Virus record (IMG/VR): IMGVR_UViG_2541047783_000005
Direction: 5' to 3' (one strand)
From: a virus
Taxonomy: Duplodnaviria > Heunggongvirae > Uroviricota > Caudoviricetes
DNA: 45,972 bases
Each line of letters opens with the position of its first letter. Position 1 is the stretch's first letter. The notes beneath the pieces were generated by a model. It searched no databases, was not told the DNA's origin, and saw only the letters and a program-made list of their open reading frames with translations. The translations under genes were made by a program, and so were the position numbers. Positions 4,770 to 42,665 of this stretch are shown here, piece after piece.

Positions 4770-4827
4770 AAAAACGGCGGCAGAGCAGTCACGGAGTAAA
4801 ACTGATACCGCCAAACGTCACCAGAAA
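4770..4827 (-). ncRNA. dicF: DicF small RNA (ftsZ-targeting), with 3' hairpin and U-tract
   Basis: Minus-strand sequence UUUCUGGUGACGUUUGGCGGUAUCAGUUUUACUCCGUGACUGCUCUGCCGCCGUUUUU matches the DicF sequence as I remember it; located between ydfBC and dicB. Confidence 0.65.
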
Positions 4828-6419: not shown

Positions 6420-6496
6420 ATTTAGATATCTTAATAACCCTTGACTTGAGATTCCTTGAGTGATTAGCATTGAGAAAACTCAATACTGGAGGTGCG
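6420..6496. promoter_or_regulatory. dicA/dicC divergent promoter-operator region
   Basis: 77-bp intergenic region with TTGACT at 6441-6446, repeated TTGAG pentamers, perfect palindrome ATTGAGAAAACTCAAT at 6469-6484, and GGAGG RBS before dicC. Confidence 0.55.
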
Positions 6497-6724
6497 ATGT
6501 TTAAATCAGACGTAATTAATTTTTACGGTACGAAAGCCAAAGTAGCGAAAGCTGCTGGCGTTGACCCATCTGCTGTTTCTCAATGGCAAGAGCTGGTTCC
6601 TGAAGGTCGCGCGATGCGTCTACAGGAGGCATCTGGCGGCGAGCTTCTGTATGATCCCAAGGTTTATGACGAATATCGTAAGACGAAGCGGGCGGGGCGG
6701 TTGAACAATGAAAATCACTCCTGA
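6497..6724 (+). CDS. dicC: DicC / Cro-like small regulator
   Basis: Internal start MFKSDVINFYGTKAKVAKAAG...; C-terminus ...EGRAMRLQEASGGEL.YDPKVYDEYRKTKRAGRLNNENHS resembles DicC. Confidence 0.75.
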   Translation: MFKSDVINFYGTKAKVAKAAGVDPSAVSQWQELVPEGRAMRLQEASGGELLYDPKVYDEYRKTKRAGRLNNENHS

Positions 6725-7229
6725 ACAGGCTCGTGAGGCTCTGGATGCCTGGATATGTCGACCAGGAATGACACAGGAGCAGGCGACGATATTAATCACT
6801 GAAGCATTCTGGGCTTTGAAAGAGCGCCCGAACATCGATGTTCAGCGTGTCACAGATGAAGGTGGCGCGGTTGATCAGCGAGCGCTTGGCGTTAATCGAG
6901 TGAAGATATTCGAACGCTGGAAGGCTATCGACACCAGGGATAAGCGTGAAAAGTTCACGGCGCTAGTGCCTGCAATTATGGAGGCTATCCGGATTAATGA
7001 TTTCAGGTTGTATCGTGAAATTAGTGACGGAAAAAGCATCACGTACATGATCGCCGGGTTAAACAAAGAATATGGCGATGTGGTGGAGTCCGGACTGCTT
7101 TTTGCTGATCCTGCCGTAGTGGATCGTGAAACTGACGAACTTATAGAAAAAGCAATTGCTTTCAAACTTGCGTATCGACAGCAATACCAACAAAAAGCTG
7201 GATGGAATTATGAGCCTTCTTTTTGCTGA
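6708..7229 (+). CDS. Hypothetical early-operon protein (173 aa)
   Basis: ORF overlaps the dicC stop and the downstream start; no motif I can assign. Confidence 0.45.
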   Translation: MKITPEQAREALDAWICRPGMTQEQATILITEAFWALKERPNIDVQRVTDEGGAVDQRALGVNRVKIFERWKAIDTRDKREKFTALVPAIMEAIRINDFRLYREISDGKSITYMIAGLNKEYGDVVESGLLFADPAVVDRETDELIEKAIAFKLAYRQQYQQKAGWNYEPSFC

Positions 7230-8175
7230 ACGCCCACTGGTTATAAACACACAGCTTGCGATGAAGATTGGCTTAAATGAAGCCATTGTGTTGCAGCAGT
7301 TGCATTACTGGTTGAGAGATACCAATTCCGGCATGGAATGTGATGGTGTTCGCTGGATTTACAACACAACGGAACAATGGCTGGAACAGTTCCCATTCTG
7401 GTCAGAGTCAACGTTAAAGCGCGCGTTTGCAAGTCTGAAAACGCTGGGGCTTTTGCGTTGTGAAAAGCTCAATAAATCAAAGCGCGATATGACCAATTTC
7501 TACACGATTAACTATGGAAGCGAGCTTTTAGATGATGGCAAATTGAGCGAATCCATCGGTTCAAAATGCGCCGCTCCATCAGGTCAAAATGACACGATGG
7601 AAGAGGTCAAAATGAAACGCTCCATTGGTTCAAAACGACCCAATGTCATCGGGTCAAAATGGCCCGATGATCCTACAGAGAATACAACAGAGATTACTAC
7701 AGAGAATAAAAACACTTTTCGTCCGGAAGCTTCGCAACCGGACCCGCAGACGGCTGAACAGGATTTTTTAATCCGGCACCCTGGCGCAGTTGTGTTTAGT
7801 GCGAAAAAACGCCAGTGGGGTAGCCAGGAGGATCTGGCGTGTGCGCAGTGGATATGGGGGCGGATCGTGGGTCTCTACGAACAGGCCGCCAGTGATGATG
7901 GCGAGATCATGCGACCAAAAGAGCCTAACTGGACTGTCTGGGCCAATGATGTGCGCACAATGCGGATGCTGGATGGCAGAAGCCACAGACAAATTTGTGA
8001 AATGTTTGGTCGGGTACAGCGGGATCCATTCTGGGTAAAAAACATCATGAGCCCGTCAAAGCTCCGCGAAAAATGGGACGAACTGGTCATCCGCCTGGGG
8101 CGTTCACCTGTACAGCGTTGTGTTAATCATATTTCTGAACCGGATACAGAAATTCCGCCTGGTTTCAGAGGATAA
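7210..8175 (+). CDS. Putative replication initiator (O-like), origin iterons embedded in the gene
   Basis: N-terminal winged-helix-like segment (LAMKIGLNEAIVLQQLHYWL); five IGSK-type peptide repeats that correspond to DNA iterons; position downstream of cro-like gene. Start taken at ATG 7210. Confidence 0.6.
   Translation: MSLLFAERPLVINTQLAMKIGLNEAIVLQQLHYWLRDTNSGMECDGVRWIYNTTEQWLEQFPFWSESTLKRAFASLKTLGLLRCEKLNKSKRDMTNFYTINYGSELLDDGKLSESIGSKCAAPSGQNDTMEEVKMKRSIGSKRPNVIGSKWPDDPTENTTEITTENKNTFRPEASQPDPQTAEQDFLIRHPGAVVFSAKKRQWGSQEDLACAQWIWGRIVGLYEQAASDDGEIMRPKEPNWTVWANDVRTMRMLDGRSHRQICEMFGRVQRDPFWVKNIMSPSKLREKWDELVIRLGRSPVQRCVNHISEPDTEIPPGFRG
7559..7663 (+). repeat. Five direct iterons (GGTYCAAAAYG) at 22-26 bp spacing, followed by an A-rich tract; candidate phage origin
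   Basis: Copies at 7559, 7583, 7606, 7628, 7654; then ACAGAGA-type A-rich repeats at 7675-7720. Confidence 0.6.
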
Positions 8176-8215
8176 GTTTTGATTTCAGGTCATGAGGTAA
8201 TTTTAAGGGGGACTT

Positions 8216-8617
8216 GTGGCAAAAGTTTTTACACAAGAAGAGCGGGAAAAAATTAAAGGGCAGGTGGTGGAACTCGTGCGCCAGAGCGGTCGTGAGACGT
8301 TACGGCAACTGGAAGCTAAAACAGGTGCGACTAGATATCTGATGAGCGTTCTTGCCAGAGAGCTGGTAGCCAGTGGCGATGTATACAACTCCGGCTACGG
8401 GTTATTCCCGTCTGAACAGGCGCGTAAGGACTGGCAAAACGCCCGCAAAAAACTCTCGAGGGCAAAGGTGAAGAAAACAGCTGTGGTTGATCCGGACCTT
8501 ATCTGGTCGTTACCTGATGGAGAAATACGTCGCTACGACAGTCGCCTAAACATAATCTGTCGCGAGTGCCGGATGAGTGAAGTTATGCAGCGCATACTGG
8601 CATTTTATCAGGGATAA
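8216..8617 (+). CDS. Hypothetical protein (133 aa), GTG start
   Basis: ORF with strong AAGGGGGA RBS just upstream; no recognisable motif. Confidence 0.45.
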   Translation: MAKVFTQEEREKIKGQVVELVRQSGRETLRQLEAKTGATRYLMSVLARELVASGDVYNSGYGLFPSEQARKDWQNARKKLSRAKVKKTAVVDPDLIWSLPDGEIRRYDSRLNIICRECRMSEVMQRILAFYQG

Positions 8618-8835
8618 TGTTAGGTATTTTAGACGTTACTAGATTAAAAAGCATTAGTTCAGGAGTGAATTGACATTCTCATTTTTCATGGCACAGGGTA
8701 GATCTGGCGTGGTTGTCCGCTTTGTGCCAAAAGCGGACATCGAATAATTTCAGCAGCACTCAACCTTATTAACCAAATCGCCTCAACTCATATGGACATG
8801 CATCCGGAAGTGCCAACTTCGTAAACTTATTCACT

Positions 8836-10623
8836 TTAAGTCTGAGCCTCACTCTCTTGGCCATAAGTGGCTTGCCAGTATCTCGCCGTAGGGTTCATTA
8901 GAATGTGCAATACAAGCCACCATGCAAAAATGCAGGGAGGTTGATTGTAGTAACCGGCAGGCACATATCCGTGAGCTAGTTGATTTCGTAAATCACCATA
9001 GATTTTATCTACCAGTAAGGCCTGAAGATTGCCAATTATGTCTACGCCGAAAGCTTCAATAATCAGTGGATTATCTAGTAATCCCTTGAGTCCATTTCGC
9101 TCTTGCGAACCGTCCCCGTGAAGCTGCGATGGTTCCTCACCTTTAATTTTAGCCACATATCTCAGACTATTTTCGATCTGGGGAATCAACACGTGGCATG
9201 CCGTCATAAAATCTCCATTGAAACCGCAAACCATACCCTTGATGAAAAACTCTTCATGCCCAAACGGGATGAAGGGATGATTGATGAACATATCGCGAAA
9301 AAACGCCTCCGAGATTGGATATTTCATTGTGATCTCATCTGTAGCAGGAATAATTTGCCCAGCTACTGCCAACTCATGGTCGATACGCATTCTCGTCATC
9401 ATTATGGGCCAAATAACTGCCCCATTTGCATCATCAATCCCCAATCCTGCGGGTATGCGAGCAAGTGTCATTCCCTCATGATCAATATGTGTTGATCCAA
9501 ACATCCAAGCTATGCTGTTGGCCTTTTGTTCTATTGCTTGAGCCTTAAGTCTCTCAATGCTGGTTGGCCGACAGACCAGCATCGCAAGTCTGAAAACCAT
9601 ATCAAACATATCTCTTCCGACTACCCGACTCTTGGCTTGATGGACAATCTCACTAATATCTTGAGGGGGAGACTGAAGGATAGACATCTGGTGACGGGAT
9701 TCGATTTGGTAATCACGCATTTCTTCATACAGCGCAAGACGTTCTATTCGGGTTCCTGGAATATTAGCCAGTGCTTCAATAGCATTCTGCATGCAGGCTG
9801 CCGAAATCATACCGCCATCTTGGAATTTTGACTCTTCCAGATGTGTATCGGCAAGAAGCCGCCAGAATTCAAACTGTGTATCTCTGTCACAGCACCTATT
9901 CGCAATCGTGATTGCGGTTTTACAGGCATCGACGGCAAATGAAAATAATTTTTGAGCCAGATAGTTTTTTGTCAGAAACAGGAGTTCCTGGGCAATAAAA
10001 GATGGCTCACTCACTTTACAGTCGATATCGAGTTGCAGGAGTCGCAGCGGATAAGGTGAATCGCCTTGTTCTCTGGTACGTTCATACTCTGCTAGTAGAT
10101 GTGCCGAAAGCTGATCAAATTCATCCCTGAAATCAGTATTCTTTCGAAAAAAACAACACAGCCTAAGCGCACGCTCTAGGCGTTCTAAAGCACTAACCCA
10201 CGTCCCTTGCGATGTCATAATAGCTATACTGGACGCATAATAAGCACGGACTGCCAGCAAAGGAAAACGGATTCCACCAATTTTACGAACCCAAAGTGTA
10301 TCAGCAATACGAGCTTGAAGTTCGGGTAGCTCTATCGTCGGGCAAAATTGAGAAAGTACCTCCAGCGACAACCCGTTAATGTCATCCGGAATTGCAGATC
10401 TACCTTGGCTGCTTTGAAAGCACGGACCAAATGGTACCTGTGGATTTTCGGGACGAAAGTGAAAACCGCAAATATGGGTTAGCAGTCTTATCTCCGCTCT
10501 TCCATCACCTAGGCTAGAAAGATACTTTGTGATATCAAAGCAGGTAACTGGCAGCTTACTCTGGATTAAGGGGGATAAATCAATAGTGTTAAGTTCGTCG
10601 AGGCTGATATTAATATCGTCCAT
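8836..10623 (-). CDS. 595-aa cargo protein with C-terminal HEPN-like Rx4HxY motif (candidate abortive-infection or defence RNase)
   Basis: Long uninterrupted minus-strand ORF opposing the flanking phage genes; AAGGTG RBS; C-terminal GDLRNQLAHGY motif (encoded at about 8965-8997); no Walker A motif; region looks AT-richer than the structural genes. Confidence 0.7.
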   Translation of the reverse strand: MDDINISLDELNTIDLSPLIQSKLPVTCFDITKYLSSLGDGRAEIRLLTHICGFHFRPENPQVPFGPCFQSSQGRSAIPDDINGLSLEVLSQFCPTIELPELQARIADTLWVRKIGGIRFPLLAVRAYYASSIAIMTSQGTWVSALERLERALRLCCFFRKNTDFRDEFDQLSAHLLAEYERTREQGDSPYPLRLLQLDIDCKVSEPSFIAQELLFLTKNYLAQKLFSFAVDACKTAITIANRCCDRDTQFEFWRLLADTHLEESKFQDGGMISAACMQNAIEALANIPGTRIERLALYEEMRDYQIESRHQMSILQSPPQDISEIVHQAKSRVVGRDMFDMVFRLAMLVCRPTSIERLKAQAIEQKANSIAWMFGSTHIDHEGMTLARIPAGLGIDDANGAVIWPIMMTRMRIDHELAVAGQIIPATDEITMKYPISEAFFRDMFINHPFIPFGHEEFFIKGMVCGFNGDFMTACHVLIPQIENSLRYVAKIKGEEPSQLHGDGSQERNGLKGLLDNPLIIEAFGVDIIGNLQALLVDKIYGDLRNQLAHGYVPAGYYNQPPCIFAWWLVLHILMNPTARYWQATYGQESEAQT

Positions 10624-11297
10624 GTCGTCACCTTGATGATTTGTTAATGCGGGGGCAACATTAATAAATGTACTTGAGACCGCAATTTGTCGATGGAGCC
10701 AACATTTATAACTATGTGCTTCTACCCTCTGAATTTTTACATGTGAATTGCTAGCTTGAATAGCTCTATCATTATATACGTGGCACTAAATTATGGCTGT
10801 TTTTCGCTCAAAGCGGACTAGAAGGTTAGCTTGTGTCGGACTTTGCGTATTAAAAGAAGTGCTGGTGGTGACTAGTGGTTGTGCCCCATTTCCACAGAAA
10901 AAATCAGAGAAACTATACCCAATAGTTGTATTGAATCACTGACGAGACAGCCTCATATTCATCAGGACTGGTCTACGTCCAATACAGGAGGTTGTGGTGC
11001 TGGTTCTCAAATGTGCGCTGGCTATTACGGCTGTAATGGCGATTTATTGTCTTGCTATTGTTCTTATGGATCGCCTTTCTGACTGATTTCATATTGGCGA
11101 GGTAACGGTAGTTAAGTAGAATGGCTGCGGGTGCTTGAGGCTATCTGCCTCGGGCATGAACACCAAAGGCAGATAGAGAAAAGCCCCAGTTAACATTACG
11201 CGTCCTGCAAGACGCTTAACATTAATCTGAGGCCAATTTCATGCTAGACACATGTAGGTTAGCCTCTTACGAGCCGAAAGGCAAGGAGAAGCAGGCT

Positions 11298-11453
11298 ATG
11301 AAGCAGCAAAAGGCGATGTTAATCGCCCTGATCGTCATCTGTTTAACCGTCATAGTGACGGCACTGGTAACGAGGAAAGACCTCTGCGAGGTACGAATCC
11401 GAACCGGCCAGACGGAGGTCGCTGTCTTCACAGCTTACGAACCTGAGGAGTAA
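11298..11453 (+). CDS. hokD: Hok-family membrane toxin
   Basis: MKQQKAMLIALIVICLTVIVTALVTRKDLCEVRIRTGQTEVAVFTAYEPEE with AAGGAGAA RBS; structured upstream leader (inverted repeat CTATCTGCC...GGCAGATAG near 11142-11180). Confidence 0.8.
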   Translation: MKQQKAMLIALIVICLTVIVTALVTRKDLCEVRIRTGQTEVAVFTAYEPEE

Positions 11454-42090: not shown

Positions 42091-42665
42091 TGGCATTCAG
42101 AATGAGTGAACAACCACGGACCATAAAAATTTATAATCTGCTGGCAGGAACTAATGAATTTATTGGTGAAGGTGACGCATATATTCCGCCTCATACAGGT
42201 CTGCCAGCAAACAGTACCGATATTGCACCGCCAGATATTCCGGCTGGCTTCGTGGCTGTTTTCAACAGTGATGAGGCATCGTGGCATCTCGTTGAAGATC
42301 ATCGGGGTAAAACCGTCTATGACGTGGCTTCCGGCGACGCGTTATTTATTTCTGAACTTGGCCCATTACCGGAAAATGTCACCTGGTTATCCCCGGAAGG
42401 GGAGTTTCAGAAGTGGAACGGCACAGCCTGGGTGAAGGATACGGAAGCAGAAAAACTGTTCCGGATCCGGGAGGCGGAAGAAACAAAAAACAACCTGATG
42501 CAGGTAGCCAGTGAGCATATTGCGCCGCTTCAGGATGCTGCAGATCTGGAAATTGCAACGGAGGAAGAAATCTCGTTGCTGGAAGCATGGAAAAAGTATC
42601 GGGTATTGCTGAACCGTGTTGATACGTCAACTGCACAGGATATTGAATGGCCAGCACTGCCGTAG
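42090..42665 (+). CDS. tfa: Tail fibre assembly protein Tfa
   Basis: [39 protein letters not shown]... typical Tfa N-terminus; overlaps stf stop (TAATG). Confidence 0.85.

Follow-up and report, generated by a model that had tools for sequence, protein, structure and literature searches.

A prophage-encoded DUF7380-DUF4209 protein with a conserved HEPN motif is a candidate single-gene abortive-infection system of Escherichia coli

Background

The HEPN-domain protein HepS of the Salmonella prophage Gifsy-1 acts by abortive infection (Abi) and is inactive by default; it is the product of a single gene, carries an Rx4-6H motif, has no antitoxin, and is encoded by a lambdoid prophage, in the accessory region that follows the replication genes (PMC13043305). 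Tha (tail-activated HEPN), from prophages of Staphylococcus aureus, is a non-specific RNase that the resident prophage represses and that a phage structural protein activates in defence (PMC11087260). Both HepS and Tha sense tail proteins. Two further validated systems, HEC-08 (a DUF3644 HEPN domain with Zn-ribbons) and DS-11 (CBS with HEPN), join a HEPN effector and a non-catalytic domain in one polypeptide, and defence is lost when their Rx4-6H motif is mutated. Here we describe a gene with likenesses to all four, located at 8836..10623 on the minus strand of a 45,972-nt caudoviral sequence (IMG/VR record IMGVR_UViG_2541047783_000005; below, the window). The window is a complete Qin-like lambdoid prophage of Escherichia coli, inserted between rspB and a truncated ydfJ, and the gene is cargo within it. 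Computational analysis established the domain architecture of the product, a HEPN fold with a fully conserved motif, the absence of a partner gene and the behaviour of the gene as mobile cargo in prophage hotspots. We propose that it probably encodes a self-contained, one-polypeptide anti-phage protein of the abortive-infection type, a moron of its prophage.

The cargo protein differs from each of the systems above. The HepS family consists of standalone HEPN proteins of at most 250 aa homologous to STM14_3211, which places the cargo protein outside it; Tha, of another family and host, is set apart by its description; HEC-08 and DS-11 use other HEPN families and accessory domains, neither having the DUF7380 domain or the TPR-like solenoid found here. 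The family that does take in the cargo protein, above its gathering threshold, is C6orf70/ERMARD (PF13910, DUF4209, 'EMARD_N'). Anantharaman et al. 2013 placed DUF4209 in the HEPN superfamily and described a family with a conserved Rx4-6H motif, TPR fusions and operons linked to restriction-modification (RM), more frequent in bacteria than in eukaryotes (PMC3710099), a description that agrees with our observations. Eukaryotic members are described there as membrane-anchored proteins of the endoplasmic reticulum (ER), whereas in the cargo protein no segment is strongly hydrophobic (the highest Kyte-Doolittle mean over 19 residues is 1.75). This family is a computational definition only, with no bacterial member of known function.

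The cargo protein also matches the PADLOC entry PDC-S39 nearly end to end, with aa 43-581 aligned to profile positions 54-602 of 615 (PDLC05012, E 8e-103; PDLC05011, E 3e-102), and has no co-oriented neighbour, as expected of a single-gene PDC-S39 system. PDC entries are candidates only: the 145 PDCs are untested and owe their nomination to members that sit inside BREX, DISARM or type I RM loci (guilt-by-embedding, bioRxiv 10.1101/2024.01.29.577857). The supplements of that paper that we examined did not list PDC-S39 by name, and in the literature it appeared only as a PADLOC output line.

Results

A C-terminal HEPN domain with an invariant motif

Pfam DUF4209 (PF13910) matched aa 484-573 of the cargo protein, covering profile positions 2-88 of 89 with 34.0 bits against a gathering cut-off of 22.3. 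In the structural model, aa 457-595 (8839..9255, minus strand) form a predicted four-helix up-down bundle of two alpha-hairpins that resembles solved HEPN domains, with helices H1 (457-468), H2 (472-493), H3 (527-551) and H4 (562-594) and, between H2 and H3, an insert (494-526) holding a beta-hairpin and short helices. The putative catalytic motif RNQLAH (R546-H551; 8971..8988, minus strand) stands at the end of H3, where it closes a helix (545-551) that is followed by a loop and then by the long helix 562-594, the position that the HEPN topology rule gives for the motif (PMC3710099). The same rule expects an acidic residue next to the active site, which in the cargo protein would be E484, in H2 (472-493), and a variable stretch inserted between H2 and H3, here 494-526. 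Sequence searches gave less: against the PDB, the single sequence, a full-length profile and a C-terminal-only profile returned nothing beyond chance matches or weak TPR ones, and none to a HEPN protein, a Pfam scan of 48 homologues produced no cross-match to other HEPN-clan families at E <= 1, NCBIfam held no match for the cargo protein, and its PHROGs matches were limited to families of unknown function.

We used an alignment of these 48 homologues, 24-97% identical to the cargo protein, to assess conservation. R546, H551 and G552 were each present in 48/48 sequences, and N547 in 43/48, with H in the other five. The PQIENSLR block (aa 481-488; 9160..9183, minus strand), which lies in H2, was similarly constant, with Q482, E484, S486 and R488 in 48/48 and N485 in 47/48. 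The Rx4-6H pattern as such is not significant, because four matches occur in the cargo protein and 2.7 are expected by chance at its composition. Only one of the four, R546/H551, is conserved in the family, and it is this conservation across 48 homologues that makes it stand out. A preliminary description made from the sequence had read GDLRNQLAHGY as an Rx4HxY signature of a HEPN-like C-terminus and had proposed conservation of R and H in homologues as a check. The segment lies at aa 543-553 and passes that check, and the model fold, the DUF4209 match and the two invariant residues bear out the HEPN assignment. The 'xY' part is no feature of the family, position 553 being Y in 21/48 and L in 20/48. 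If the HEPN-like domain were non-catalytic, binding RNA or a ligand or serving as a scaffold as in MtlR or sacsin, the protein would be a regulator or adaptor and no toxin; we disfavour this reading and regard it as improbable.

Selection on the gene was estimated by comparing the E. coli allele with an 81%-identical Citrobacter allele. The cargo gene is intact and under purifying selection, with an overall dN/dS of 0.126; the HEPN domain was the most constrained part (0.058) and DUF7380 the least (0.197). Across the family, 39-60% identity is kept in the HEPN region and 20-36% in the N-terminal regions. Judged from the sequences, such a constant effector with a diverging N-terminus is consistent with the pattern of sensor-effector immune proteins, though it is not proof of that function.

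A sensor-like N-terminus without an NTPase

The preliminary description had seen no recognisable ATPase or nuclease motif in the N-terminal ~500 aa. No NTPase domain was found there, but the region does hold recognisable domains. It begins with DUF7380 (aa 4-166; 10126..10614, minus strand; Pfam PF24098, E 2e-34), a family-specific domain that is the fastest-evolving part of the protein. Both DUF7380 and DUF4209 were detected by Pfam in 48/48 homologues. A central TPR-like alpha-solenoid follows at about aa 171-335 (9619..10113, minus strand), with helical repeats starting around aa 100, and we propose that it serves as a sensor or partner-binding surface. The bridging region to the HEPN domain (aa 336-456; 9256..9618, minus strand) is modelled as helices with a beta-hairpin at 377-390, a low-confidence loop at 396-399 and a long helix at 401-434. 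Searches of Pfam, NCBIfam and PADLOC found no NTPase domain, and the model is all-alpha without a Rossmann-like core. We therefore rejected a STAND/Avs-type TPR receptor, in which a central NTPase domain lies between effector and TPR sensor.

The architecture also bears on whether the gene serves the phage in another way, for instance as a counter-defence factor that breaks down signalling nucleotides of host immunity, or host RNAs, in the prophage's own lytic cycle. Several unrelated temperate phages carry members of the family, and the HEPN proteins Csm6/Csx1, which can also cleave cyclic oligoadenylates, are among the structural neighbours of the cargo protein. Yet Pfam found no CARF or other nucleotide-sensing domain in the cargo protein or the 48 homologues, the gene runs opposite to the lytic operons, as would a moron expressed in the lysogen, many members reside on chromosomes outside phages, and PADLOC nominated the family from members inside host defence loci. 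We disfavour counter-defence and give it very little probability.

A swappable module in a variable prophage slot

Comparison of genomes delimited a swappable module at 8741..10799, since left-flank homology stops at ~8740 and right-flank homology resumes at ~10800. The module spans 2.06 kb, including ~175 bp of its own upstream DNA. The gene or full module was present in 145-148 of 5,426 complete E. coli genomes (2.7%) and the flanks in thousands, in keeping with its earlier designation as cargo. The surrounding DUF977-sok/hokD junction (window 8618-11128) is a variable slot in E. coli Qin-like and lambdoid prophages. Its alternative contents include an AIPR protein matching PADLOC AbiU (E 7e-24), an Sll1717-type P-loop ATPase with a weak PDC-M28C match, a two-gene cassette whose Pfam matches, to HEPN/RES-NTD1 and a GNAT domain, are weak and sub-threshold, DUF5677, QueH, an alpha/beta hydrolase (O157:H7), DUF7167 clusters and a SAM methyltransferase. 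K-12 has flxA-ydfV-relBE; the preliminary description had expected relBE and small ydf genes in this slot of K-12 Qin, and a K-12-like genome indeed carries ydfX, ydfW, flxA, ydfV, relB, relE and hokD there. Because these cargos are so varied, AbiU/AIPR and relBE among them, and not all defensive, the slot is best regarded as a moron/conflict-gene hotspot of mixed content. Several of the alternatives lack a PADLOC match and could offer additional candidates.

Disrupted and shortened forms of the gene also occur. In strain FDAARGOS_1290 (NZ_CP070048.1), an IS4 insertion splits it into separate 'DUF7380' and 'DUF4209' coding sequences, and the protein cluster holds shortened versions of 335-553 aa, some of which may be contig-end artefacts.

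A large family without a conserved partner

The homologous family comprises 7,403 clusters at 50% identity, 2,841 of them at E <= 1e-30, and the best 150 clusters are all ~550-670 aa long, aligning to almost the whole profile. The P2 gpA-gpQ (tin/old) hotspot houses a full-length PDC-S39 member of 643 aa, which matches the same PADLOC models. A 39%-identical homologue in a lambdoid prophage of Enterobacter kobei lies in the interval between the Q antiterminator and holin genes (our loci L017/L018, 6301-8815), the position of the stx genes in Stx phages, and a Citrobacter member lies at a prophage end. In Vibrio cholerae, Pseudomonas and cyanobacteria, members occur in small chromosomal islets outside recognisable prophages. 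The V. cholerae islet, between tauE and carB, has two genes, the second encoding a 160-aa protein without a Pfam match (loci L002-L004, 9958-10440) that is not conserved in other taxa. In the cyanobacterium Trichocoleus the stop codon of the homologue and the start of the next gene overlap; this 140-aa gene matches the PIN domain weakly (locus L006, 9926-10348) and is possibly a lineage-specific partner. Across the contexts compared (E. coli, the P2 hotspot, E. kobei, Citrobacter, Vibrio, Pseudomonas and cyanobacteria) no neighbouring gene was conserved, and we therefore treat the family as a single-gene system. A toxin-antitoxin module (type II/VII, HepT-MntA-like) was rejected on the same ground, as no gene is co-transcribed with the cargo gene here and no partner is conserved across taxa.

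These contexts are also where an active HEPN RNase with a role outside defence has to be weighed. Such a protein could maintain the prophage or island by addiction-like killing on loss, compete with co-resident prophages or plasmids, or degrade RNA under stress in the manner proposed for its eukaryotic relative ERMARD/C6orf70. The slot adjoins hok/sok and is occupied by relBE in K-12, both of them classical addiction or stress modules; the chromosomal islets and the overlap with the weak-PIN gene fit this reading, and Anantharaman et al. propose RNA degradation at the ER membrane for the eukaryotic branch (PMC3710099). An addiction module, however, needs an antitoxin-like partner, and none is conserved; the family recurs at sites enriched in anti-phage genes (the P2 tin/old hotspot; BREX, DISARM and RM loci); and a patchy spread (2.7% of E. 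coli) together with a quickly diverging N-terminus is in line with conflict systems. We disfavour a non-defence role and consider it unlikely, though the likeliest of the alternatives that we weighed.

Other studies had flagged the family as well. Rousset et al. 2022 list 'DUF4209' as P2-hotspot system 13 (193 occurrences) and system 55 (76 occurrences); we found no other DUF4209 entry in their supplement files. DefensePredictor (Science 2026) gives E. coli DUF4209 proteins the label 'predicted novel defense gene', among them WP_021514655.1 (595 aa, log-odds 4.3), which has a weak HHblits match to the C-terminal HEPN domain of AbiJ and agrees with the cargo protein (RefSeq WP_000340970.1, 'DUF4209 domain-containing protein') in length, species and annotation only. 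No DUF4209 protein appears in its table of tested transcription units or in the supplements of Vassallo 2022, and our search of the literature and supplements (DUF4209, DUF7380, PDC-S39, ERMARD with HEPN) found no experiments on any family member. Four independent computational studies flagged the family earlier, so this is not the discovery of an unknown gene family: the family is catalogued (DUF4209, PADLOC PDC-S39), and the 'undescribed system' of the preliminary description is contradicted by its presence in Pfam, PADLOC, Rousset 2022 and DefensePredictor.

Expression signals, composition and position in the prophage

The open reading frame was as first described: an intact coding sequence on the minus strand with an ATG start, 595 codons and a stop, and a ribosome-binding site of its own. 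The Shine-Dalgarno sequence AAGGTG (10630..10635, minus strand) ends 6 nt before the ATG and is also conserved in the Citrobacter cassette. Further upstream, the E. coli and Citrobacter cassettes, two related sequences only, share a ~40-nt block, ACATG..AAAT..GGGTAGAA.C.CATAG (10707..10747, minus strand), roughly 85-125 nt 5' of the start codon; its Citrobacter counterpart lies at ~6880-6920 of locus L015. This block may serve as a promoter or operator moving together with the gene, and one might speculate that it holds a weak promoter, TTCACA-17-TAGAAG (10742-10747 / 10719-10724). A consensus scan for promoters and terminators gave nothing above shuffled expectation near the cargo gene and did not report TTCACA-17-TAGAAG. 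At the left junction, between the convergent DUF977 and cargo genes, the homology breaks right at a 10-bp inverted repeat, TGTCCGCTTT-6-AAAGCGGACA (8714..8739), possibly a terminator common to both genes, though it has no clear T-run. A stem is predicted, but the 71-nt segment is not unusually stable (z-score only -1.4).

The cargo gene has a GC content of 0.447 (GC3 0.40), lower than the structural genes (0.548), as had been noted; the contrast with its immediate neighbours is small, because the adjacent early genes lie at 0.46-0.48. The upstream intergenic region (10624-11128) is AT-rich as described, with a GC content of 0.418.

The prophage runs in the order int/xis/exo/dicB, cro-like, YdaT, replication, hokD, Q, lysis, terminase, lambda-like tail and pinQ, and the cargo gene lies between the replication module and hokD, where it had been placed. 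To its left is the DUF977 family gene (8216..8617, plus strand), the last of the replication module; to its right, and divergent from it, is a hok/sok-type locus (11129..11453, plus strand) with an Rfam sok match at 11129-11303 and the hokD coding sequence at 11298-11453. The preliminary description had the gene on the strand opposite to every flanking gene. Locally this holds, as the right-operon genes on both sides are on the plus strand (cro-like/YdaT/replication/DUF977, 6470-8617, and hokD/rem/ydfU/Q), but the left arm, from int to the cI-like gene, shares the minus strand with the cargo gene.

Elsewhere in the window, Rfam identified the DicF antisense small RNA (4775-4826, minus strand; RF00039, 72.5 bits), which adjoins dicB/ydfD as in K-12 Qin, and two cspA-type thermoregulator 5' untranslated regions (RF01766; 14386-14778 and 17289-17674, plus strand) that precede the cold-shock genes cspB and cspI. 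The region around these genes is markedly AT-rich (GC 0.34-0.41 at 14-19 kb). An IS009 RNA match was found at 42433-42631 (plus strand; RF02111, 221 bits). The tail-fibre region (~41.6-42.1 kb) carries an inserted IS200 element, since an identical genome (locus L008, 7470-7928) has an IS200C-family transposase annotated there, between the lom-like and tail-fibre genes.

Discussion

The abortive-infection reading draws on several lines of evidence. Of the hits of DefensePredictor, 45% were validated empirically on a limited phage panel. Family members share a variable slot with AbiU/AIPR and relBE, occur in the P2 gpA-gpQ hotspot and belong to a PDC whose members are embedded in BREX, DISARM and type I RM loci, and the HEPN motif is intact. 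Because of this validation rate together with the hotspot, embedding and motif evidence, we rate a defence function as rather probable. The proposal of a defence or abortive-infection toxin in the preliminary description is thus supported in part, by the HEPN, hotspot and PDC-S39 evidence, and fails where it implied an undescribed family. What appears new, on sequence evidence, is a single-protein HEPN Abi candidate that combines DUF7380 with a TPR-like solenoid.

We infer the RNase activity, trigger, activation mechanism, RNA target and anti-phage phenotype of the cargo protein as follows. The C-terminal HEPN domain would be a metal-independent RNase that is held inactive in the lysogen, with DUF7380 and the TPR-like alpha-solenoid as its sensor or regulatory module. 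By analogy with HepS and Tha, this module may detect an infecting phage by one of its products, most likely a protein, and the resident prophage would avoid triggering it. Binding of the trigger would alter the oligomeric state or the conformation, bringing two HEPN Rx4H motifs together in a composite active site of the dimeric kind usual in the HEPN superfamily. Cleavage of RNA (tRNA anticodon loops, rRNA or mRNA) could then stop translation and abort the infection.

If validated, a very common and compact sensor-effector RNase (one gene, ~600 aa) would join the catalogue of prophage-borne immunity as an NTPase-free counterpart to the TPR-sensor/nuclease logic of Avs, and the DUF977-hokD junction of Qin-like and lambdoid prophages is a cargo hotspot that could be mined for more systems. 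It would also give a first biochemical handle on the DUF4209 HEPN family, including its eukaryotic branch with human ERMARD. More tentatively, PDC-S39/DUF7380-DUF4209 proteins could be widespread NTPase-free, one-chain immune receptors in which a fast-evolving alpha-solenoid binds a phage protein and allosterically activates the fused HEPN RNase, and could be the bacterial ancestors of eukaryotic ERMARD/C6orf70. Were this true, a human ER-associated protein of unknown biochemistry would be linked to an antiviral RNase lineage.
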